Positions 1 to 24,221 of a stretch of DNA of 25,461 nt are shown here, in pieces. The stretch's first letter is position 1, and the number at the start of each line of letters is the position of its first letter. The notes under the pieces were generated by a model. That model was not told the DNA's origin. It saw only the letters and a program-made list of their open reading frames with translations, and did no database searches. A program made the position numbers and the translations under genes. The stretch is from Macrostomum lignano (lineage: Eukaryota): the NCBI GenBank assembly GCA_002269645.1, contig NIVC01005126.1, forward strand, positions 1 through 25,461, written 5' to 3'.

Positions 1-185
1 ACAACTCACTCCCCACTCCTCGTGCAACCTCTCAGGACTCGTTGTGTTCGCCCTGGATATTTACTAAAATTCCTAACTTACATTAAACATTAAGAAAACA
101 CAATCTACTAATTTTATGCAAGTCAACCGAACTGTATATACAACAGTAACGCACTCCAACAATTTCCCTCATTTTTACAAAACAG

Positions 186-11362
<11,177 letters not shown>

Positions 11363-13082: not shown

Positions 13083-13540
13083 AGTAGTAGGAAAGTGGTA
13101 CCCTCTACCGCCATCGCACCGGATTGGCCGGGGCACCCGGCCAATGAGGGGAGAGGGCGCCCCGAAGACGCCCACCCCGACGCCAAACCCACCCCGACCC
13201 CCAAACCCACCCCGACCCCAAACCCACCACCGCCACGCACCCAATCCCGACCCCAAACCCACGCACCCACCCCCGACCCAAACCAGGCCCCCTCCTGTCC
13301 TACACCCCTCCTGTCCTGCACCCCGTGCATCCCATACCAAGACCCCCTCCTGTCCTGCACCCCGTGCATCCCATACCAAGACCCCTTCCTGTCCTGCACC
13401 CCATGCATCCCATACCAAGACCCCCTCCTGTCCTACACCCCTCCTGTCCTGCACCCCGTGCATCCCATACCAAGACCCCCTCCTGTCCTGCACCCCATGC
13501 ATCCCATACCAAGGCCCCCTCCTATCCTACGCCTTGCCCC
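13083..13540 (+). repeat. Left terminal inverted repeat with C-rich and 39-bp minisatellites
   Basis: The first 71 bp are identical to the reverse complement of 24151-24221. Degenerate CCCCGACCCCAAACCCAC-type units follow, then about 5 copies of CATCCCATACCAAGACCCCCTCCTGTCCTGCACCCCGTG. Confidence 0.9.
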
Positions 13541-13792
13541 ATCCCATGTAGCAAGGTCCTTCTATCCTGTACCCTAACCAAAACCAATTCCCCCCTCCTA
13601 ATTCCTAAACCCAAGTCTTATTACCTGTCTCACTTACCGCCTTTAAAGCTAGCCAAGGCAAAACCCTCATTCCATGCTTTGGTTGTACTGTATCTTGCTG
13701 TGGCGGGTACAGCGTGAGGTCGTTAGACCTAGAACGCTACTTCTTGGCGGCCAGAGGGCCGCAAGAAGGTCCCGCCACCTCCTGTTACGTTG

Positions 13793-14044
13793 ATGGCTGA
13801 GACTTTGTTAAGGCCCGAGTTCCTGCGAAAGGGCTGCTGTGTGGGGGTTGGATTTGGGGTTCGGATTAGTTATTGCTATGGAACAGGAGCTGGTTTCTAA
13901 ATGGCTGAGTGGTCCCCGGAAGGGCTCCTGATTTGCCGAGAGTTCCTGCGAGAGGGCTGTTGTGTGGGGTTGGATTCGGGGTTCGGATTGGTTATTGCTA
14001 TGGAGCGGGAGCTGGTGTTACTTACCAACTCTCGTCGTATATAA
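13793..14044 (+). other. Two tandem paralogous micro-ORFs (13793-13900, 35 aa; 13901-14044, 47 aa)
   Basis: Both start ATGGCTGAG and share EFLR(K/E)GCCVG. A ~78-bp direct repeat underlies them. Coding status is unproven. Confidence 0.35.
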
Positions 14045-14045
14045 T
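13987..14045 (+). promoter_or_regulatory. Putative Pol II promoter of the PC4-like gene
   Basis: ATTGG (reverse CCAAT) at 13987-13991 and TATATAAT at 14038-14045, 46 nt upstream of ATG 14084. Confidence 0.5.
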
Positions 14046-14083
14046 CTCGCACACAGCCGGAAGGAAAGCTCACAGTGAACAAA

Positions 14084-14521
14084 ATGAACTTCAAGACATT
14101 ATCGAACAGATTTCGAATCGGCGTCAGGTCGCACTCGAAGTGCATCAGCATCAGAAAGTGGTACAAATTTGATGAAGAGTATCGACCAGGTCTGCCTGGC
14201 ATGGAGCTCACCGTCCACCAGTTTTGCCACTTGGGCAGCCTGAAGGAACGACTGGAAGAGTTTGCAAGAAAGTGTATCGATGCGCAATGCCTTCTGGGTG
14301 GCAACAGGCAAGTGGTTGTGCAAAATGGCGTAATCACACTCTGGCGCCTTCCAACTGTACTCGGACCGCCGGTGCACCTAAGGCACGCCTTACCGCTTCC
14401 TACTACACTTTGGCGCGAAGTCTGGGCTCAAAAGCAATGGGTCCTAGACAAAATGACAAGCGAGAGCCTCCGGTCGAGCCACCGATCGGCGATCCATGGG
14501 ATACCACCCTACGGAATCTGA
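14084..14521 (+). CDS. PC4/Sub1 (transcriptional coactivator p15)-like ssDNA-binding protein, probably two PC4 repeats
   Basis: ISIRKWYKFDEEYRPGLPGMELTVHQFCHL aligns by eye with human PC4 [31 protein letters not shown]. A weaker second copy reads LLGGNRQVVV...LPLPTTLWREV. AAAATG start context. Confidence 0.65.
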   Translation: MNFKTLSNRFRIGVRSHSKCISIRKWYKFDEEYRPGLPGMELTVHQFCHLGSLKERLEEFARKCIDAQCLLGGNRQVVVQNGVITLWRLPTVLGPPVHLRHALPLPTTLWREVWAQKQWVLDKMTSESLRSSHRSAIHGIPPYGI

Positions 14522-14769
14522 AGTGTTCAGCATGGGCAGCAAGGCTTACGCTCGACCAACTGATGCAAGTACCTGACAGGCAGTCGGCAGATTGGGACGA
14601 CCACTGGGGGGCCTTCCAAGCAGTTCAGGCTGAATTTAGAAAGAGATTTACATTCGAAACTCTGGAAGAGCCACCAACAGCTGAGAAGAACCAACAGCCT
14701 TCATTCCACCAGCCACCAATGAAGCGACGCGCAATGCATGAAGCGACAACTGGTCATTTCGTCAAGTAA
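14437..14769 (+). CDS. Hypothetical Polinton accessory protein (~110 aa)
   Basis: The 3' part of ORF 14224-14769 has protein-like composition and overlaps the end of the PC4-like gene. The start is uncertain and no family was recognised. Confidence 0.4.
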   Translation: MGPRQNDKREPPVEPPIGDPWDTTLRNLKCSAWAARLTLDQLMQVPDRQSADWDDHWGAFQAVQAEFRKRFTFETLEEPPTAEKNQQPSFHQPPMKRRAMHEATTGHFVK

Positions 14770-15004
14770 CTTTTTTTAAATATAGTTTTGAACCATAGTA
14801 CTGATCATGCACTGTTGTATATATTGCTTTGTCAACACTGGCTATAATATTGCCCCATGATGCTTTAATTTCTTGCGATAATACCTGTTTTGTAAATACA
14901 CGTGACGGGCCTTAATACTGCCCTTCCATTCTTCATAAACTTTTTTTTGTGCTAATACGAGCTTTTAACATGTAATTTTATGCTTTGCAATCCATGGACC
15001 TGCC

Positions 15005-15080
15005 AATAAAATAAACAAAAAAAACATTTCATTTTCGTAAGCATTGTTGTACAAACACTATTGTCGCATTCGCGTTTATT
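15005..15080. terminator. Convergent polyadenylation region
   Basis: AATAAA on + (15005-15010) and on - (TTTATT at 15075-15080) in the AT-rich gap between converging gene blocks. An (ATT)n tract lies at ~15135-15159. Confidence 0.5.
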
Positions 15081-15207
15081 TTTTCTTATCTTTTGTACAC
15101 AAAAGAAATACAGAAGTAAAGTTACAGCAAAAATATTATTATTATTATTATTATTATTACTCGGTGCATAGGCAGATCTCACTACTACTGTTATGCCGTA
15201 GAGGAGC

Positions 15208-15806
15208 TCAGTCAGAGTCCAGCAAAGTAGGTTCGGATGCTTGATCTGGTAGCAAAATGCGGGAGAGGGCATCAGCTGCAGTCTGAGCCTCAACCACGCT
15301 GCGAGCACCAGCTATTATACAACGATACGAATGAAACAAAATCAACTTTACAGAGGCAGTAAACTCAAGCACAAGTCCGTTAAACATTTCCGGCTCATAG
15401 GTGGCCCGATGCGGCCATTTAGACTTGACTTCCCCCAACCGGAGTGGATGCCGACCCGCGGGAAAGGCCGTCACAGAGGTAATAGTCTTGATGCGAATCT
15501 GGGGCAGACTGGTCAATCGCAAGAAGTCCGCACACAGCTTCACAATCTTCTCCGTCTCTGCGAGAGCTTCCTCCATGCTTTTGGCTCCACAGACAGACAC
15601 TTGTCCGGTCGGATACACCAGCGCGGTTACTCGATGCTGCCCGCTCTTCATCACCACTGCCAGTGTTCGAGGATGAACCAGGCGATGGCGGATTGTGTGA
15701 TACTGAGGCAGATGAAAGTCAGGAAATTCACTAGTTGAGGCAGACCCACCCGGGTCGCCAGGTCGGCTCCTGTCACGATGTTTGTCACGCGAATTGTTGC
15801 GACCAT
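15208..15806 (-). pseudogene. TATA-binding protein (TBP)-fold gene, ~199 aa if one frameshift is repaired
   Basis: ATG 15806 gives MVATIRVTNIVTGADLATRVGL (TBP beta-1 NIV strand). After a frameshift at ~15720-15670 it continues AVVMKSGQHRVTALVYPTGQVSVCGAKSMEEA (TBP [31 protein letters not shown]) and YEPEMFNGLVLEF..VKLILFHSYRCIIAGAR (TBP YEPELFPGLIYRM..IVLLIFVSGKVVLTGAK). Confidence 0.85.
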
Positions 15807-15851
15807 CTTTAGACAATCGAGAGAAACGCCAGTGCCTGCTGCAGATCGCTA

Positions 15852-15890
15852 CTTTTATAGACCCGTAGCCGCGAGGCCGCAGCCAATCAG
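15852..15890 (-). promoter_or_regulatory. Putative promoter of the TBP-like gene: NF-Y box plus TATA box
   Basis: AGCCAATCAG on + (15881-15890) and TATAAAAG on - (15859-15852), about 50 nt upstream of ATG 15806. Confidence 0.6.
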
Positions 15891-16299
15891 CGTACAGCGC
15901 CACCTTGGCCAGGGCGCAGGGTAGCACGTACTTTGAGGCACTCGGAAAGGCTAGGTGTGCGAGGTCGTAGACAGGCTGCAGCAGCAGACGCGACAGGAAC
16001 TGGCACTTGACATCCCCCTTGCTAAATATCGGGCCTTGCAAGTGAGAGATATCGCTCCAGAGACAAGAGTAGGGTCGGAACCCACTCCTGTCCCAGTCTA
16101 GACCGTGCCGCTTATTGGTGAGCCAGTAGCAGGTTCGTCGCTGTCCTCGATCAAAGAGCTCAAAGCTGTGCGGCGGTCGGTAGCAATAGTAATGAGCCGT
16201 CGTTTGACCGCATGCAAACTCAACCCATGCAATTTCCTTAATCACAAAGTCCTCTGTTTTGTAGAGGTGCGGAAATCCTTCAAAATCAATGACAATCAT
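15860..16299 (-). CDS. DEDD/DnaQ-like 3'-5' exonuclease-family protein; currently reads through into the TBP frame
   Basis: MIVIDFEGF (DxE motif I), FVIKEIA, WLTNKRHGLDW, IFSKGDVK and CALAKVALYADWL. True ATG at 16299 overlaps the upstream stop (ATGA). The 3' boundary is inferred. Confidence 0.55.
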
Positions 16300-16892
16300 C
16301 TTGGCCACTTGATCCACTTGCCGTATCCTTTCTGAGACTGAGTCTTCTTATAGCCTTGCAGTCGAGGTTTTTTAGGACTGGACTTTTCTTCCCGAGGCTT
16401 TTCCAGCAATTTTGTAGTGTTCAGACCAACTGCAGACAGAGGCACGTGGTTTTCTTGAAGACACGTAACAAACTCATTAATCCCATTCGGTGGCTGAAGG
16501 TACTTAGAGTACGTATCTTTAACTATGAAATGCAGCAGGTCCACGATATTTGAGTTGTACAACGGTTTACCATTGACAGAAACTTCATACGTATCATCTA
16601 TGCTAATCGACTTGCACTTTACGGTTATGAAGCTAATCAATGCCTGCAGACGATGATGCCATTTCTGATTCACCGTCAGATATAAAACCTCCTTCCACTG
16701 CGGTTCTTTGTGAATTACTGGAGGCTGTTCTTGGGTCGCACTTGCCTGCAGCTGCTGCACGCAACGCTCGTCCCTAATCTTGCGCAACTGTTTTTCCGCC
16801 TCTAGCTCGGGTTCACAGACTGTCTCCATGCCCCTCTGATTCACAAGTGCCTCATACTGCAACCGGGGTACCAGTATCATTTCCTTGTACAT
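16296..16892 (-). CDS. Conserved Polinton accessory protein (PW/PZ class; exact label uncertain), 198 aa
   Basis: Intact ORF with MILVP, EVSVNGKPLYNSNIVDLL and PPNGINEFVTCLQENHVP, a pattern I recognise from Maverick/adintovirus conserved ORFs. Confidence 0.6.
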   Translation of the reverse strand: MYKEMILVPRLQYEALVNQRGMETVCEPELEAEKQLRKIRDERCVQQLQASATQEQPPVIHKEPQWKEVLYLTVNQKWHHRLQALISFITVKCKSISIDDTYEVSVNGKPLYNSNIVDLLHFIVKDTYSKYLQPPNGINEFVTCLQENHVPLSAVGLNTTKLLEKPREEKSSPKKPRLQGYKKTQSQKGYGKWIKWPR

Positions 16893-17182
16893 GTCTTTTT
16901 ATACAGGTGAGAATCAGAGGAAGACAACGAAGGATATGCGGGTGTGAGAGATTGCGCCGAGCCTCTTTCACACTTTTGCTTTGTGCAACAAGCCGGAGAG
17001 TATTTCGATATCGCCTGAGTCTCCGCTTCAAGCTATCTTCACAACAACTTTTCCTGCTAGTAGTTTATAATACACTCAACCAAAAAGCAAATGGTGCTTT
17101 TATTTGCATAGGTAAGTATGCAGCGACGCAAGGATATAGTGCCCTCACAAAAGACAGTTATTAGTGCAATGTGTTTATCCAT
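16852..17182 (-). pseudogene. Small basic Polinton conserved protein with two frameshifts
   Basis: Segments MDKHIALITVFC..RRCILTYANKSTICFLVECIINY / LAGKVVV / LKRRLRRYRNTLRLVAQSKSVKEARRNL lie in successive frames and resemble the Polinton small Arg/Lys-rich ORF family. Confidence 0.45.
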
Positions 17183-17212
17183 GTTTAACTCAGTGCAGAT
17201 ACTGAGCCATTC

Positions 17213-17875
17213 TTATAGATAAACTCGCTGCGGGGCCTCATCGGGGAGAAAATTGGCTCTCAGGCGCAGTTCATGGGGCGAAGCGGGGTGAAAATCAAGC
17301 AGCAGATAGCGCTGATCTCCATCTCGCACCAATCGATCCATCAGTTCTACTAGCAGAGTGCGCCGTTTGGGAAAGCATTGCTGACTTAAAGCTTGGACCG
17401 CAGAGGCGTCTCTGGGGTTGTTGAACAACACAATGTAGGTGCAATTTATGCTAATTGTGCGCCACTCTCTGCCTTTGAAAAATAGATTTTGCGTGATGAG
17501 AATGACAAAGCAGGGCTTGTGGTGGGCCTCACGGGTGAACAGATGTCGTAGCTCTCGACTTGCAGCTGCTTCATCCAGTAAATCGTCAATCACAATCAGG
17601 TCATGGGGCTGCAGATCCAAATTCGATAATCCTTCACATACTTGCACTCCTAGCCGCCGCAGAGTCGCGTGGAGTTCCGGCTGCGGGCATCCGTGATACC
17701 AAATCATCCGCTTGGGAGGTTGGTCGAACAGAAGCAGTCGTTGGGACAGCAACCGCAAACAGAATGTTGATTTTCCCGCTCGAGAAGGGCCCGAAACCAT
17801 CATGCAGCCTCCCATCCGCAGTCTGGAATCAAACACCTTGCAACTGATTTTTGAGTCTGAGTATGATTGCATCGT
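17213..17875 (-). CDS. A32/FtsK-like genome packaging ATPase
   Basis: Walker A GPSRAGKS, Walker B LIVIDDL, then HH..VILITQNLF and RTISINCTYIVLFNNPRD. The ORF is intact; the start is placed at an internal ATG and is uncertain. Confidence 0.92.
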   Translation of the reverse strand, partial: TMQSYSDSKISCKVFDSRLRMGGCMMVSGPSRAGKSTFCLRLLSQRLLLFDQPPKRMIWYHGCPQPELHATLRRLGVQVCEGLSNLDLQPHDLIVIDDLLDEAAASRELRHLFTREAHHKPCFVILITQNLFFKGREWRTISINCTYIVLFNNPRDASAVQALSQQCFPKRRTLLVELMDRLVRDGDQRYLLLDFHPASPHELRLRANFLPDEAPQRVYL

Positions 17876-18302
17876 TTTGAGCCACAGCTGCCGGGTGCAA
17901 AACCTTGATGAACAAGGCATTATATGACATTCTCTTATGCAGTCGATGGATCAAGTAAAAAATGCAATACCAGCCGCAAAGAGTTGACGAACTGGGCTGA
18001 ACAGGGACCGTATTCCATTGTAGCACCATCCGCGTCGGTTTAGTTTTCTTTAACCAGCTCTTCATATTTTTACTCAAGCCTCCCAAAGAGTTGAAAATTT
18101 CACAATGCACTTTACTGGTTACTACTCCAGCAATCCAGTGACCGCACTCATCATTCCATGGCTCATACAAAATGAAGCAGCAGGGTCGGCAGGTTGAATC
18201 GAAAAATGGTGTCACTGTTCCAACTGTAAAATTTCCGCAATAGGCATCCCGCACAGATGTGGGGCAGCGAGAAATGAACGCTTCCAACTCTTCGGAATTC
18301 AT
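17829..18302 (-). CDS. Adenain-like (C5) capsid maturation cysteine protease, 157 aa
   Basis: GHWIA (His), EIFNSLG, VQP (oxyanion Gln) and CGWYC (Cys). Intact ORF. Confidence 0.9.
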   Translation of the reverse strand: MNSEELEAFISRCPTSVRDAYCGNFTVGTVTPFFDSTCRPCCFILYEPWNDECGHWIAGVVTSKVHCEIFNSLGGLSKNMKSWLKKTKPTRMVLQWNTVPVQPSSSTLCGWYCIFYLIHRLHKRMSYNALFIKVLHPAAVAQNDAIILRLKNQLQGV

Positions 18303-19569
18303 GCTCTGCGATAATCCAGCAGCACATCCCTCTCTTTAGTGATTTCCATGCATGAATCATACACGCACAAGCAGATGAGTGTGACTGGCTGTGCGAGAGC
18401 GTTGGAAAAGCGAATATCCAGTCGTAGTTGACCCTGCCTATGACCAAACCAGCTGCCTACTTCATCGCCACTTGGACTAAGGTCAAACGCAAGCAGATAG
18501 GCACTATTTCGAAATTCATCAAAGCTTATGCAATATTTTCCACTGAGACTGCGGGCAAACTGCAAAAATTCGGATGAGGGCTGCTGCTGTGGTTCTATGG
18601 GCTGCCCAGTAATTGGCTCTCCATTGACAAACAGGCTTAAACTATTCAACCAAATGCTTGGAACCAAAACGGGTTGTGGTGCAGAGATCCATTGAAAGCA
18701 GTCTGGCTGACCATTCCAAGGAGCACAAATTTTGGCAGCTGACCATGCGTGATTGAATCGAGACTCTTGTTTCTTGTCCCAACAGAAAATGTGAATGTCT
18801 GAAGCTCTCTTCTATCAAAGTGGTAGAGAGCATTACGCTGTGAGAGCCCCTGTTCATGTGCGAGAGCCACTGTTGGGTTTACTCGGAGACGCCTCAAAAG
18901 CAGAATAGCATTGTCGACTTCAACACGGTATTGAACTCCATTATTGGGTACCATCAACGAAAAAGCGCTGCAGTGCCGGGTCAATTTGACCTGCAGGCTG
19001 ATTTGGTTTAGCAGATACTGCCGGATTGAGAAAATGTCTGAAAACAACGGGCCGGCATATTGCACAACAGCAGAAGCCTCATGCAATCTCGCACGATTTG
19101 TGAATCCATGATTTTGCTCCCCAATGGTGTCACTCTCTCCAGCGGTGTCTGGATAATAACCTGCGGCCGCCAGTTCTTGAAGCTGGTTGGCATTGCTGCT
19201 GGTCAGCACTTGAAGCATTGCTCGATATGGGTAGAGCTGGTCCCCACCACTCACAACCCGCTGGTTGAGTTTTACAGTGACATCACGAAACAGGCTGGCA
19301 AGCGGGAGATTCGATAGTCCGACATGGGCATCATCTTCATTAGTCAGCTCTGCATTGTTTATCACACGAGTTATCCGGCAAGTGACTTGCAGCACTGTGG
19401 CGTGCAGATCGGTGTAGTCCTCAGAGGAGGCATGGCAGTCGAATTCAATCGGTGCATCAGGAGTCGTGAGACTGCCGATGGGATGAAAGTCCATGAAGTG
19501 AGACCTATCCACTCCAATTTCATGCGTCATTGGCTCAAACAGGTTGAGCCGTGGATTTGTCCGATACAT
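18299..19569 (-). pseudogene. Double jelly-roll major capsid protein (PY), one 1-nt frameshift at ~18650, ~423 aa repaired
   Basis: LNLFEP, FHPIGSL..PIEFD, DYTDLHATVL, YPYRAML and NPFWF in ORF 18646-19569 continue as LNSLSLFVNG..LLAFDLSP..LRLDIRF in ORF 18299-18667. Confidence 0.9.
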
Positions 19570-19831
19570 TATGAGAGTGAATCGAGCACTCGGTTGACTG
19601 TTTTTAACGGTATCTTGCGCTTTTTTGTGGGCACTGGCTTGCTCTTCTTTGGTTTGATTTTTGGCGTTTTCTTATGTTTTTTCTGCGATGGAGGTGGTAT
19701 GCGGGAAAGGAGAACTGCATTTTCATGAGTCTCAGGGGGCAGTCGAGATAGCAGCGATGTGGGATATCCGTGCCATGAGGAAGTTTGAAGCAACTGCCTC
19801 GATAAAACTCGGTCACTTGTCGAATGTCCAT
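19569..19831 (-). CDS. Short Lys/Pro-rich ORF directly upstream of MCP, candidate DNA-condensing core protein (possibly frameshifted)
   Basis: KKHKKTPKIKPKKSKPVPTKKRKI; its TAA overlaps the MCP ATG (TAATG). Start and frame are uncertain. Confidence 0.4.
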
Positions 19832-20591
19832 GACTCACGCAGCTCAAAAGTCAAGACTGTGGGTCCAAAGAGTAATCGGATAGATTCGATACAGTTGATC
19901 GGTCGTAGCCGTATTTGCATGTGTGTTAAGCGGTGGTTTGCTGCTATTGGGAAGAACAGCTTATTCTTATAGATGAGTTCCGACCGGTGACCCTGCAAAA
20001 GACCACCAATATTCAAAGTCTGCAGTGCTGGAGTAAACTGATTTCCAATACAGCGCGGGCTAATCTGATCGCACTCAACAAGCAGCAAATCCGTATTCCA
20101 GGCCGGGTTCATGCCAGGTCGTTCAAAGCAACCTGCCTGCTCGCTATAGGTTGTCTGCGCAGCACCAAAGATTTTCCCCATCTGGCTGTTTTCTGGAAAC
20201 ATAAATCTCCACAGATCCCAGCCATTTGATAGTATACATATGGCTAACTGAATCAAGGGTAAATTTAATTAGATGCACATTTATAGGTGTTTCGCCAATT
20301 CCAGACTCATCAAAATCTTTTACAATCAGTAGCATTTACTGCATCAATCAGCTCATTCAAGTCATTGTAGCGCCCAGCTGGAATTTCAGCACATTGCATT
20401 GAACCCTCAAGCTGATAATATAGCGACAATGGATGAGGGATCGTGTAGATGCAGTTGATAAAACTGATTCCAAGCAGACCCAACTCATAGTCCAAAGCAG
20501 AATCCAGCAGCACAGGATGCAGCAGCTCAGCAGTAAAGTTGGCCGGGTCATCATCGGGGCCGGACATTACCTGAAATCTTTGCCTTTTCAT
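19813..20591 (-). pseudogene. Minor capsid/penton protein (PX-like), two frameshifts (~20330, ~20190)
   Basis: ANFTAELLHPVLLD..YELGLLGISF..IPAGRYNDLNELIDAVN, then LLLVECDQI..IGNQFTPAL..FFPI..IRL..FGPTVLTFELR, spread over three frames. Confidence 0.75.
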
Positions 20592-21565
20592 ATTTTTCTT
20601 AAGTCTTTTTCGTCAATCCAACTGGGTTTTTCTGAATCGCGCCACTGAACCAAATACCGAATCTTTCCACTCTTCAGCTTCTTAATGTTGAGAACCTTGT
20701 CGATGATCCACAGCTTCTTGTTTCCTGTCACTTGCTGCATTTCCGGCTCGTAAAACTTGCCTTCCAACTCTTCACCTCGGGCATCGATCAGAGTGTACAT
20801 GTATGGATAATGCTTGGGGTGGAGGGACTTGACTTCAAATACTTCCTCACTCCATCCCCTTGTGTATCCCTTGGTGAATGGGTTGGCCAGATTGCGAAGA
20901 GAGATTCGCACCATCATTCCTGCCTTGAACTTTGGTCTGGAGACCTTTTCACGAGTCTCAGGAAGCTTCCCATCGTAAAGCCGGTGCCAAATTTCCATCT
21001 CGTTTGACTTGTCGACATCAACTGGTCGGCTTTGAATACTCCGATGAATACTCTGGTTGTATGCCTTTGCTAAGGGTTGAAGCACATCGGTCCAGGTTAA
21101 TGTTGACTTGTGACGGAAGTACCGCCACATTCGGGATTTCAGTGTGCGGTTCCATCTCTCAATGACTGCGCATTTCTGGTCACTACTTGATGTGAATGCA
21201 TGAATTTTGTGGTTTACGCAGAGGGCTCGGAACTGGGTGTTACAAAACTCTTTTCCACGGTCGGTCCGAACTGCTCGTGGGCATCGAGGGTGAGCTCGAT
21301 TTAGGATCGCTTCGAATCCGGCTGCAACCTCCTCGGCTGTCTTGCGGCGCACCGGCTGAGCCCAGGCAAACTTGCTGAGCACATCAATGCAGCATAAAAT
21401 ATATCGTACGCCGCCATTGTACTTAGCAAACGGTAGCATTTCAACCAGGTCCAGTTCCCACTGGTCATCCATGCCCCGCACCACAATCGGTGCTCGACGA
21501 AAGTTTTTGCGTTTATCTCTATGCAGTGTGTAGACATCTTGGTCTTGGAGCCACGTTTTTACCTT
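20588..21565 (-). pseudogene. Polinton retroviral-like DDE integrase with C-terminal chromodomain, 5'-truncated
   Basis: WELDLVEM (D), VRTDRGKEF (D), VIERWNRTLK (E) and chromodomain IIDKVL..YLVQWRD..SWIDEKDL. The frame extends upstream through KVKTWLQDQDVYTLH to a stop at ~21606 with no ATG. Confidence 0.92.
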
Positions 21566-21762
21566 TAATTGTAAAAACTGGAAATTGCTAGCTAGTGGAT
21601 AAAACTAAAAACCTAAGCTGGAATTTTCTAAAAAATCATTGGTTTAGAAGTATATCGTATATACATACCTGCCCTACACTAAACTTGGGTCCGTGATGTT
21701 TGTGCAACTCTCGTTTTAATGCCTGATAGCCGCCATAGCTGCCCGGCCTCTGCAGTCAAAAT

Positions 21763-22635
21763 AAATACCTGGCAGAAGGTTTGAAATTGCCTTTTTCTTT
21801 TTCATTTTACCAAATTTCTAGTACCTATCATTTTCTTATGCCAAACACCGGCTTGAAAAAAAAAACTACCCACCCCACCATTTCTGCGGATTTAGCGTTT
21901 CTAGCCTCTGTTGTGCGCGAAAAAGCATGCATGTTTGCACAAAATACATACATTTCAATGGGAATTTTACCCGAACCTGTGCATGAAAAGACGCATTTTG
22001 TCGAAAAATTCACGCCGTATTGCATACTTTTAATCACTGTGCACGAAAACTTGCATACTTGTGCATAAAACACATGTATTTCAGTGGGGATTTTAACCCG
22101 GACCTGTGCACAAAAATGACTCATTATGGCAAAATATTTAAGAAAAAGAGCATTTTTCGCCACTGCAGCTTACATATAGAGTAAAAAAGGTGTTCATTAT
22201 TATTAAAAAATTCTATAAACTTTGTAGTATGCAGATCTAAATACCTGGCGGAAGGTTGGAAATTGCCTTTTTCGTTTTCATTTTACCGAATTTCTAGTAC
22301 CTATCATTTTCTTATGCCAAACACCTGGCTTGAAAAAAAAACTGCCCACCCCCACCAGTTTCTGCGGATTTAGCGTTTCTAGCCTCTGTTGTGCACGAAA
22401 AATCATGCATTTTTGCATAAAATACATGTATTTCAATGGGAATTTTTACCCGAATGTGTGCACGAAAAACCTCGACACTTTGCATACTTTTTAACACTGT
22501 GCACGAAAAACTTGCATACTTGTGCATAAAACACATACATTTCAATGAGAATTTTAACCCAGAGATGTGCACAAAAAATGACTCATTATGGTAAAAATAT
22601 TAATGTGAAAGAACATTTTCTCTCCTGCAGTGTAC
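21763..22635 (+). repeat. AT-rich tandem duplication with 476-bp period
   Basis: AAATACCTGGC.GAAGG starts at 21763 and 22239. The copies align through TGACTCATTATGG and contain internal TGTGCAC/ATTTCA.TGGGA sub-repeats. Confidence 0.85.
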
Positions 22636-22758
22636 CAAATATTGAATATGGCAAAGCATGTATTTATTATTATTCAGACTATATTATGTTCGTATTAAAT
22701 TTACATGCATATAGTTAAAAATTAAATATATGTGGAAAGAATGTTATTGTGAAAAAAA

Positions 22759-23505
22759 GAGCTTGCTAGTGTCCAGATCGCACTGGCCGACACTGGCTTG
22801 TCATCTTGAGAACGTGCACCAGAACTAAATCCCCGTTGAAAATCTTCTGGTCGCGGAACGCTGACTTGGCCACAGGCTTTGAATTGACCAGTCGGTAGCT
22901 CACTTTCTTGCGAACATTCTCTAGGGTCTACAGGGAGTTGTTTAGCAGCCCGTTGTCTTTCTTGAACTCATTCTTGGCCTTTTGCACGACGCTCCATGCG
23001 GTAGATAATAAACAGCGGTCGACACGTCAACACACCGAGTGGTCCTGATTACCCAGCCACTGCCATTGCGTAGGTACTTCTCTATCCGGTTGAGGATAGT
23101 CTGTATATCGTCAGAGAAGTATTGCTCCTCCTCACTCCGAATAAGAGAGTGGACCTTGGCAGCAAACCAGGCGGTGTTCTCGGCGGCGCAGCGGCCATTA
23201 ATGATGCGCTGCATCAGGACTCCGAGGCGCAGCTGAACCTTGATGGCGGTTCCTGGCTCACGTTGATGCTGGGTGATTAAGTCAATGAAAGCTTGACGAG
23301 TGCTTTCCAACACATTCCTCGGGTCTCCGCATGCACTGGCCCGGTAAAGTCGGGACCTGCCATTAAACGCCTCCTTAATCAGTTGAAAATGAATCGTTGG
23401 GTAGTCATCTGACTCAAACAGTGCTGGTATCGCAGGGCATACCGCATAGTGCTTCTCAATGCCCCGATTACTGATGACTCGCAAAAAGTCGCAAGTTATT
23501 TGCAT
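22759..23505 (-). pseudogene. Protein-primed DNA polymerase B remnant (large internal deletion)
   Basis: The N-terminal region ending IEKYLRNGSGW..VDVSTAVYYLPHGAS is joined at ~22990 to AKNEFKKD..LLNNSL*TLENVRKK..LV..DKP..LDTSKL (motif B region). Exonuclease, motif A and motif C are absent. Confidence 0.8.
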
Positions 23506-23565
23506 TTTCGTTGTATTTTTAATTTAATCTAAAATAAATAAAAAATCTATAGGACCGAGGTGCTT

Positions 23566-23704
23566 TATTTATAAAGTGTACTGGAGCCCTTCTCACGCAG
23601 GGTCCAAACCAAATCGTTCACCAGGGACCTATCGACCAATAGAATCCCTTCTCCACATTTTACTCGGAAATCACTTCAAATGCTTTCTCGACCAATAGAA
23701 TCCC
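23566..23704 (-). promoter_or_regulatory. Putative PolB promoter: two CCAAT repeats plus TATA
   Basis: TCGACCAATAGAATCCC at 23632-23648 and 23688-23704; TATAAATA on - at 23573-23566; ATG at 23505. Confidence 0.55.
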
Positions 23705-23936
23705 CTCTCTACTCGAAAATTCCAAGCAATCAGACCCTCTATCGGATCACATTGAAACTCTGTGCTGCGTGTCACCACACGCGGTAGGAGGACACTCGCC
23801 AATGGACACTCATTCACATCTCGATACCCACCCTTGGACACTCAACCAGACACTCGGCTGCCCGACCCTCATCTGGCCTGCCCGACCGGCTTGCCCGACC
23901 CCAACCTGGGCTTGCCCGACCCCCTTCTCCGGCCTC

Positions 23937-24221
23937 CGGTATGGGATGGTGTGCTGGACAGGAAGGGGCCTTGGTATGGGATGGATAGGAGGGGCCCGGT
24001 TTGGGGTCGGAGGTAGGTGCGTGGGTTTGGGGTCGGGGGTGGGCGTCTTTGGGGGCCCGGTTTGGGTCGGGGGTGGGTGCGTGGCGGTGGTGGGGTCGGG
24101 GGTGGGTGCGTGGCGGTGGTGGGGTCGGGGTGGGCGTCTTTTGGGGGCCCCTCCCCTCATTGGCCGGGTGCCCCGGCCAATCCGGTGCGATGGCGGTAGA
24201 GGGTACCACTTTCCTACTACT
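23937..24221 (-). repeat. Right terminal inverted repeat
   Basis: Reverse complement of the left end, with fewer copies of the 39-bp unit. Confidence 0.9.

Follow-up and report, generated by a model that had tools for sequence, protein, structure and literature searches.

A divergent TATA-binding protein gene in Polintons of Macrostomum lignano, with TAAGAA as its candidate cognate promoter box

Whether and how animal Polintons follow an ordered, virus-like expression programme is the question behind a locus at which a Polinton/Maverick of Macrostomum lignano carries what reads as a gene for a TATA-binding protein (TBP). The window, meaning the whole stretch of DNA analysed (contig NIVC01005126.1, 25,461 nucleotides), holds an element with the features given for Polintons, Mavericks and adintoviruses in the available text of PMC8097293 and PMC8502044, namely terminal inverted repeats with AGT ends, a 6-bp duplication, and pPolB, integrase, ATPase, protease and capsid genes. 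The eight core genes that the accessible part of PMC8097293 gives for vertebrate Mavericks do not include TBP, and that paper also reports that no virions were seen for these elements. In Starrett et al., legends to figures on MELD viruses and related elements do carry a TBP label, and the novelty of the gene is therefore slightly lower than had been assumed. The features of the window are as follows.

13083..24221, no strand: family-A Polinton/Maverick of 11.1 kb with AGTAGT ends, terminal inverted repeats and a 6-bp target duplication
14038..14521, plus: PC4-like gene (PF02229, E 3e-5, just under the curated cut-off), with TATATAA 46 nt upstream and no TAAGAA
15208..15806, minus: TBP gene, a two-lobe core alone without N-terminal extension, with a frame change near 15716-15720
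15852..15859, minus: canonical TATA box TATAAAAG, 53 nt before the TBP start, within the coding sequence of the upstream gene (EXO)
15860..16299, minus: EXO, a conserved gene of ~145 aa, always directly upstream of TBP
15418-16299: extent of the EXO read-through in unbroken copies, as placed on the window (1602-2483 in the family-A copy L002)
15881..15890, plus: CCAAT consensus match AGCCAATCAG, on EXO codons and not above chance
16345..16352, minus: TAAGAA box of EXO, 51 nt before EXO
16296..16892, minus: ORF X, 198 aa, no family, with a canonical TATA at 16903 and no TAAGAA box
17210..17217, minus: TAAGAA box of small ORF Z, over the ATPase stop codon and 33 nt before Z
17213..17920, minus: packaging-type ATPase, with a one-off variant box TAAGAG at 17932-17937
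17829..18299, minus: cysteine protease (PRO), a weak Peptidase_C48 match, without box
18299..19569, minus: major capsid protein (MCP), in two frames in the window copy, with TAAGAA at 19669-19674, 105 nt upstream
19569..19969, minus: small basic ORF Y, with TAAGAA at 19964-19969, ~150 nt upstream of the Y start
19813..20684, minus: putative minor capsid gene (mCP), labelled from position, with TAAGAA at 20679-20684 and 20596-20601
20588..21604, minus: retrovirus-type integrase (INT) with chromodomain, its start not located in the window copy
22942..23573, minus: N-terminal remnant of the protein-primed DNA polymerase, with a canonical TATA 68 nt upstream and no TAAGAA

The polymerase is mostly deleted in the window copy, and long polymerase ORFs were found in at least 4 of 10 sister copies inspected. 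The integrase gave an rve match (E 2e-13) and the polymerase a DNA_pol_B_2 match (E 7e-14) in one copy of a second family (B, see below); the window ATPase and protease gave AAA and Peptidase_C48 matches below cut-off only. Neither mCP nor EXO had a Pfam match; EXO is presumed to be exonuclease-like, and its nearest Atlas clusters were unnamed. The MCP of a family-B copy gave a poor model (pLDDT 40.6), with Foldseek matches mostly to jelly-roll capsids at a TM of at most 0.29. Among the element ORFs, several of which have no family, Pfam recognised no TFIIB or RNA polymerase gene, and a Pox_A32 search of the genome for other Polinton families gave no match. The PC4-like gene adjoins the terminal repeat in both families and has a canonical TATA (window 14084-14521); its product is a second transcription-cofactor or ssDNA-binding fold carried by the element. 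Extended terminal repeats (~1 kb in some copies) put the same TATATAA promoter before PC4 and the polymerase (family-A copy C114, L123-L124; C291, L127-L128).

The gene at 15208..15806 is a TBP with near certainty. The sequence-only reading had assigned a TBP fold to the C-terminal part of the minus-strand ORF 15208-16317, and PF00352 was indeed matched over both repeats, in two stretches, by the whole ORF (E 3.6e-16) and by its last 170 codons alone (E 2.9e-17), the score being 62.7 bits against a curated cut-off of 22.9; 35 TBP sequences of the PDB were matched at E<=0.001. The missing first strand, IRVTNIVTGADL, is encoded from the ATG at 15806 in another frame, as had been proposed, and the predicted repaired product, a single core of ~199 aa, agrees with natural unbroken copies of 198-201 aa. 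The model of one such copy (pLDDT 80.5) matched solved TBPs in Foldseek against the PDB (E 9e-13, TM 0.70).

A DNA search of the genome gave at least 46 matches, and 30 family-A loci were fetched. All four TBP motifs lay in one frame of 198-201 aa at 16 of these, 3 had diverged frames of 189 aa, and 11, the window included, were broken. On contig C2126 the identical insertion is present together with its two flanks (99.5% identity over 11.8 kb) and has an unbroken TBP, so the break in the window stems from misassembly or from a mutation that happened very recently. The frame break is private to this contig or copy, and the proposal of a gene normally hidden by a frameshift does not hold. Three of the four sequencing runs that were guessed to be RNA (of 24 listed) cover the break site, none with the window's state, and the fourth has no cover there; element cover in these runs is thin and extends to non-coding parts, which makes them uninformative on transcription. 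A fusion of EXO with TBP was considered and set aside, since the long frame occurs only in broken copies (window L001; differently broken L011, L020 and L023) and is a by-product of the break. In unbroken copies of both families, the conserved ~145 aa of EXO are not followed by a stop, and the EXO frame continues for ~130 codons across the 5' half of TBP, in a frame other than that of TBP.

A search for intact copies in other Polintons of the genome had been suggested as a check, and the gene was found in two families. A protein search, in which 150 of 195 candidates were scored, gave 44 rows of family A and 106 of family B, the latter at 35-42% identity. This accounts for upwards of 100 stray TBP-like annotations in the genome, which are element genes. 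All 19 family-B contigs inspected have TBP after EXO in Polintons (ATPase in 18, polymerase in 17, full inverted repeats in 2). The family-B order is PC4, INT, mCP, MCP, PRO, ATPase, X, EXO, TBP and then the polymerase on the other strand, and in both families, which are 31-36% identical, TBP keeps its place between EXO and the element end or polymerase. The genome has its host TBP and a TRF2-like gene elsewhere, in three places each, and element TBPs are 25-29% identical to the former and 23-28% to the latter. The data thus support a real, conserved and divergent element-borne TBP.

The gene had also been credited with its own CCAAT and TATA promoter. Both motifs are present, and both lie inside EXO coding sequence. 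Given the EXO protein, the TATA has a chance probability of 0.026, and 26 of 26 parsed loci (of 30) share it unchanged, loci that are 87-100% alike and hence weak evidence of conservation; this part of the claim stands, weakly. The CCAAT box does not: its chance probability is 0.58 (0.32 for the full consensus), and it was rejected as not above chance and absent from family B. At that place family B has CTTAAGAAG instead of the family-A CTATAAAAG, and this difference led to the finding of a box, TAAGAA, that recurs through the structural cassette.

Upstream of family-B genes, TAAGAA was present for INT (9/12), mCP (13/13), Y (13/13), MCP (15/15), ATPase (16/16), Z (13/14), EXO (17/18) and TBP (19/19), that is, for 8 of 10 cassette genes, and absent for PRO (0/13), X (0/17) and PC4 (0/11); PC4 has TATAWAW upstream in 10 of 11. 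Family A has exact TAAGAA before mCP, Y, MCP, Z and EXO only, at places that match family B and in different reading frames; TBP, X, PC4 and the polymerase have a canonical TATA in front of them (for the polymerase, in the window and three copies). The distance from box to start is 33-110 nt, or ~147-150 nt for Y. The consensus is YWTAAGAA; the family-A form often begins TATAAGAA, and 100 of the 123 family-B boxes begin CT or TT. TAAGAA ranked first or joint first among 6-mers of the upstream windows in all four copies tested. These windows make up 10-12% of the cassette and hold 5 of 6 coding-strand sites in family A and 7 of 8, 7 of 10 and 7 of 11 in family B (binomial p 3e-6 to 9e-5), values that are overstated in that these upstream windows were chosen after the motif was seen, the Z start was picked from the motif and the copies are kin; antisense sites number 0-1. 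A control AT-rich Polinton without TBP match has TAAGAA 20 times, yet at -120 to -25 of none of its 16 genes, with one site at -7; this control is a single, distantly related element covered in part, its right end not reached.

TAAGAA sites often encode LRK, FKK or YKK, and the motif could in principle be a by-product of lysine-rich protein ends beside a TBP that is a recent, functionless host capture, an account into which the narrowness of the element TBP clade in databases (few members outside this genome: P0002-P0004, P0009, P0020, P0153, P0154 and P0156-P0158) would also fit. Against the first half of this account, rare TTA-AGA codon pairs are kept (P 0.02-0.06 each given the protein, with 0.24-0.34 for frame-2 sites), and the motif is kept in non-coding DNA, the INT site lying in a diverged spacer; two TTA/CTA-AGA sites in copy C130 fall inside genes, away from any start. 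Against a recent capture, which the sequence-only reading had named among the outcomes that would undo its claim, stand the 25-29% identity to host TBP and a quick tree (85 of 152 rows, every second database match), in which the 16 element-type proteins fall together in a single long-branched clade with SH-aLRT 99, separate from host TBP and the TRF2-like proteins; long branches meet at the root, and the tree thus does not place the donor. Nor does the gene look functionless. For lobe 1, dN/dS did not exceed 0.25 in 10 of the 11 family-B pairs (0.51 on 13 changes in the remaining pair), and for lobe 2 it was 0.07-0.21 in 6 of the 11, dS being saturated in the other 5; two A-versus-B pairs were uninformative. 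Lobe 1 overlaps the EXO read-through tail, and since synonymous change in the TBP frame is free there (dS up to 0.75), the constraint acts on TBP. As judged from these substitution rates, family-B TBP is under purifying selection. The account of capture and by-product is largely refuted, and we give it almost no weight.

The box could instead be real and yet serve another end, as an RNA-level or 3'-end signal (polyadenylation or a trans-splicing branch point) or be bound by some other factor, for instance the PC4-like protein or EXO. Several TAAGAA sites do fall close ahead of the preceding gene's stop, at 0-23 nt from it, and some INT leaders have a T-rich tract and AG. The next start follows at a narrowly limited distance (33-110 nt, ~147 for Y), against about -400 to +435 for the previous stop, and a pyrimidine tract is absent from most leaders. 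A polyadenylation role in particular is disfavoured: in 17 of 17 copies TBP, the last gene, is followed by AATAAA or ATTAAA beyond its stop, and TAAGAA is absent from that place. We judge such a non-promoter role quite improbable.

Residues were compared in yeast numbering, after Table 1 in the available portion of PMC12529657. Kept in 19 of 19 element-type proteins are N69, V71, E186, E188, F190 and F207; changed across the clade, again in 19 of 19, are the DNA-face positions F116Y, K120Q/H, V122S/T, T124C, N159T, V161T/S and P191N/S/T, which are mostly canonical among 134 other database TBPs. The canonical set of four intercalating Phe, two Asn, two Thr and P191 is altered at F99, N159, T124, T215 and P191, and F116 is Tyr. 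The earlier assignment was right in its particulars: the repeat-1 Asn is kept, the repeat-2 Asn is Thr, and the four Phe read L (alignment-dependent), Y, F and F. That the DNA-face states are new yet fixed suggests altered specificity over decay, and the loss of intercalating F99 may leave DNA binding weak. E186 and E188 are TFIIB contacts according to the accessible text of PMC7221094, which adds that most viral TBPs have changed glutamates and are paired with a viral TFIIB. Helix 2 of the family-A TBP (L002 residues 78-95) is acidic, as against a basic patch in host TBP and family B; that basic patch binds host regulators (PMC7221094, same portion).

A further alternative is that TAAGAA is a weak TATA read by host TBP, the element TBP doing some other job (supply boost, TFIIB decoy or host-gene repression). 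According to the available part of PMC1636458, wild-type TBP can cope with a G at position 6 of the box, and a solved complex with that variant is among the PDB matches; given how its boxes often start, family A above all makes host TBP a candidate reader, and keeping the TFIIB glutamates while losing F99 is what a decoy would need. Other observations fit this alternative poorly: PC4 in the same elements uses canonical TATA, the TBP-less control Polinton lacks the box, and the DNA-face residues stand in fixed new states, without drift, across proteins down to 31% identity. Family-B boxes mostly start CT or TT, and such starts are poor for host TBP. Part of that expectation comes from PMC12529657, where, in the text available, a preference for T at the first box position is ascribed to P191; the loss of P191 fits the C at that position in 84 of 123 family-B sites. 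We consider reading by host TBP fairly unlikely.

Our preferred reading, held with moderate confidence, is that the element TBP is a likely late-gene promoter selector acting through TAAGAA (YWTAAGAA) before most capsid, packaging and integrase genes. PC4, the polymerase and the family-A TBP would be made first, from ordinary TATA by host TBP; the element TBP would then bind TAAGAA boxes and, through its two retained glutamates, recruit host TFIIB and Pol II, turning on the structural cassette. The early and late order assumed here follows gene type only. The polar residue at 122 might meet the G at box position 6, a structural guess in keeping with known TBP-DNA contacts. The idea that the protein may recognise a variant TATA is materially strengthened by this box before most cassette genes in both families, with binding itself predicted. 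Autoregulation, also raised by the sequence-only reading, is not supported for family A, where the TBP gene has a canonical TATA and no variant box, and is plausible for family B, where the box on the TBP gene itself could give positive feedback. The broken copy in the window would depend on sister copies.

The two lobes of the protein have different histories in family B. Lobe 1 tracks EXO (Spearman 0.78, 66 pairs), and its correlation with lobe 2 is 0.08. Where two copies agree to 94-98% in lobe 1, their second lobes often agree to 60-76%, and near-identical lobe 2 occurs only in three pairs, those with near-identical polymerase ends. Lobe 1 thus follows EXO and lobe 2 follows the polymerase end, so that recombination between the arm with the structural genes and the polymerase arm takes place within the TBP gene, between the lobes. 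Tentatively, and with rather less assurance than for promoter selection itself, the system might be a one-protein, sigma-factor-like switch in animal Polintons, the smallest such system known, in which a re-specified TBP reads TAAGAA with host TFIIB and the lobes are modular: an AGAA-facing lobe that is conserved, and a lobe for the loose 5' half that is swapped with the polymerase arm. We take the variable lobe to be the one that faces this 5' half, on an assumed orientation. The P191 passage of PMC12529657 also enters into that assignment. Separately, polymerases behind near-identical cassettes are only 45-70% identical (family-B copies such as C100, C38, C211 and C130).

The nearest analogues are the herpesvirus TBP mimics (EBV BcRF1, KSHV ORF24, HCMV UL87), which, in the accessible text of PMC4893493 and PMC12529657, share with the element a virus-encoded TBP fold and a polar DNA face (at the V122 and V161 positions). 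The arrangement of promoters is also alike in the same sources, with a TATT late box before structural genes and TATA before early ones in herpesviruses, and TAAGAA against TATAWAW in the element. The mimics are described there as domains, ~10% identical, within large proteins that work in a complex of six, and they have no TFIIB glutamates, whereas the element TBP is a bare core of 190-200 aa with both glutamates and no evident partner complex; nor is it a long protein with a Pol II-binding N-terminus, as the herpesvirus vPIC protein with its five partners is. By analogy, the element system would work like herpesvirus vTBP/TATT without being a member of it. Nucleocytovirus TBPs, as covered by the available text of PMC7221094, share the two-lobe, virus-borne fold at 17% identity or less (Foldseek); most are paired with viral TFIIB and have diverged glutamates, whereas the element keeps the glutamates and has no recognised TFIIB gene. 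With cellular TBP and TRF2/TBPL1 (host L079 and L085) the element TBP has in common the saddle fold and N69, V71, E186, E188, F190 and F207; it differs from them in having no N-terminal extension, in seven fixed DNA-face changes, in the loss of F99 and, in family A, in lacking the helix-2 basic patch.

No promoter box is described in the available text of the Polinton and adintovirus papers PMC8097293 and PMC8502044, and no relevant TATA or TBP passage stands in the parts available of PMC11161782, PMC11131425, PMC12220804, PMC8097293 and 10.64898/2026.06.19.733378, sources outside subscription journals and Repbase. New here is thus a candidate cognate box for a Polinton TBP and, if the reading is true, a built-in early-to-late switch. 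Once a dedicated TBP is paired with a box of its own, the promoters, their regulator and the probable sequence of expression can all be named. Such a system would also be another independent viral route to TBP-based late control, beside those of giant viruses and herpesviruses, and would offer a natural TBP whose specificity has changed while its fit to host TFIIB persists.

A search of viral contigs for relatives of the TBP and ATPase found none, and none of 16 TBP loci from a metagenome scan had Polinton genes by tblastn; the nine whose ORFs were listed were archaeal-, eukaryotic- or giant-virus-like. Archaeal-looking loci among them (L161, L163, L171 and L172) have divergent TBP genes, sometimes paired, beside restriction-modification and helicase genes. 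In the M. lignano genome there is a third, AT-rich Polinton family without TBP (L160, L158 and L159; C506:472001-493700), and further polymerase families are also listed. In the host flank of the window (77-10816), exons of a sodium:neurotransmitter symporter (77-631, 9019-9321 and 10337-10816) surround a BTB-BACK gene at 3184-4873 on the same strand, a layout that fits a nested gene or two transporter genes. The host introns hold long tandem arrays of 16-nt and 8/12-nt units, at 1170-1920 and 9173-10300 of the window.
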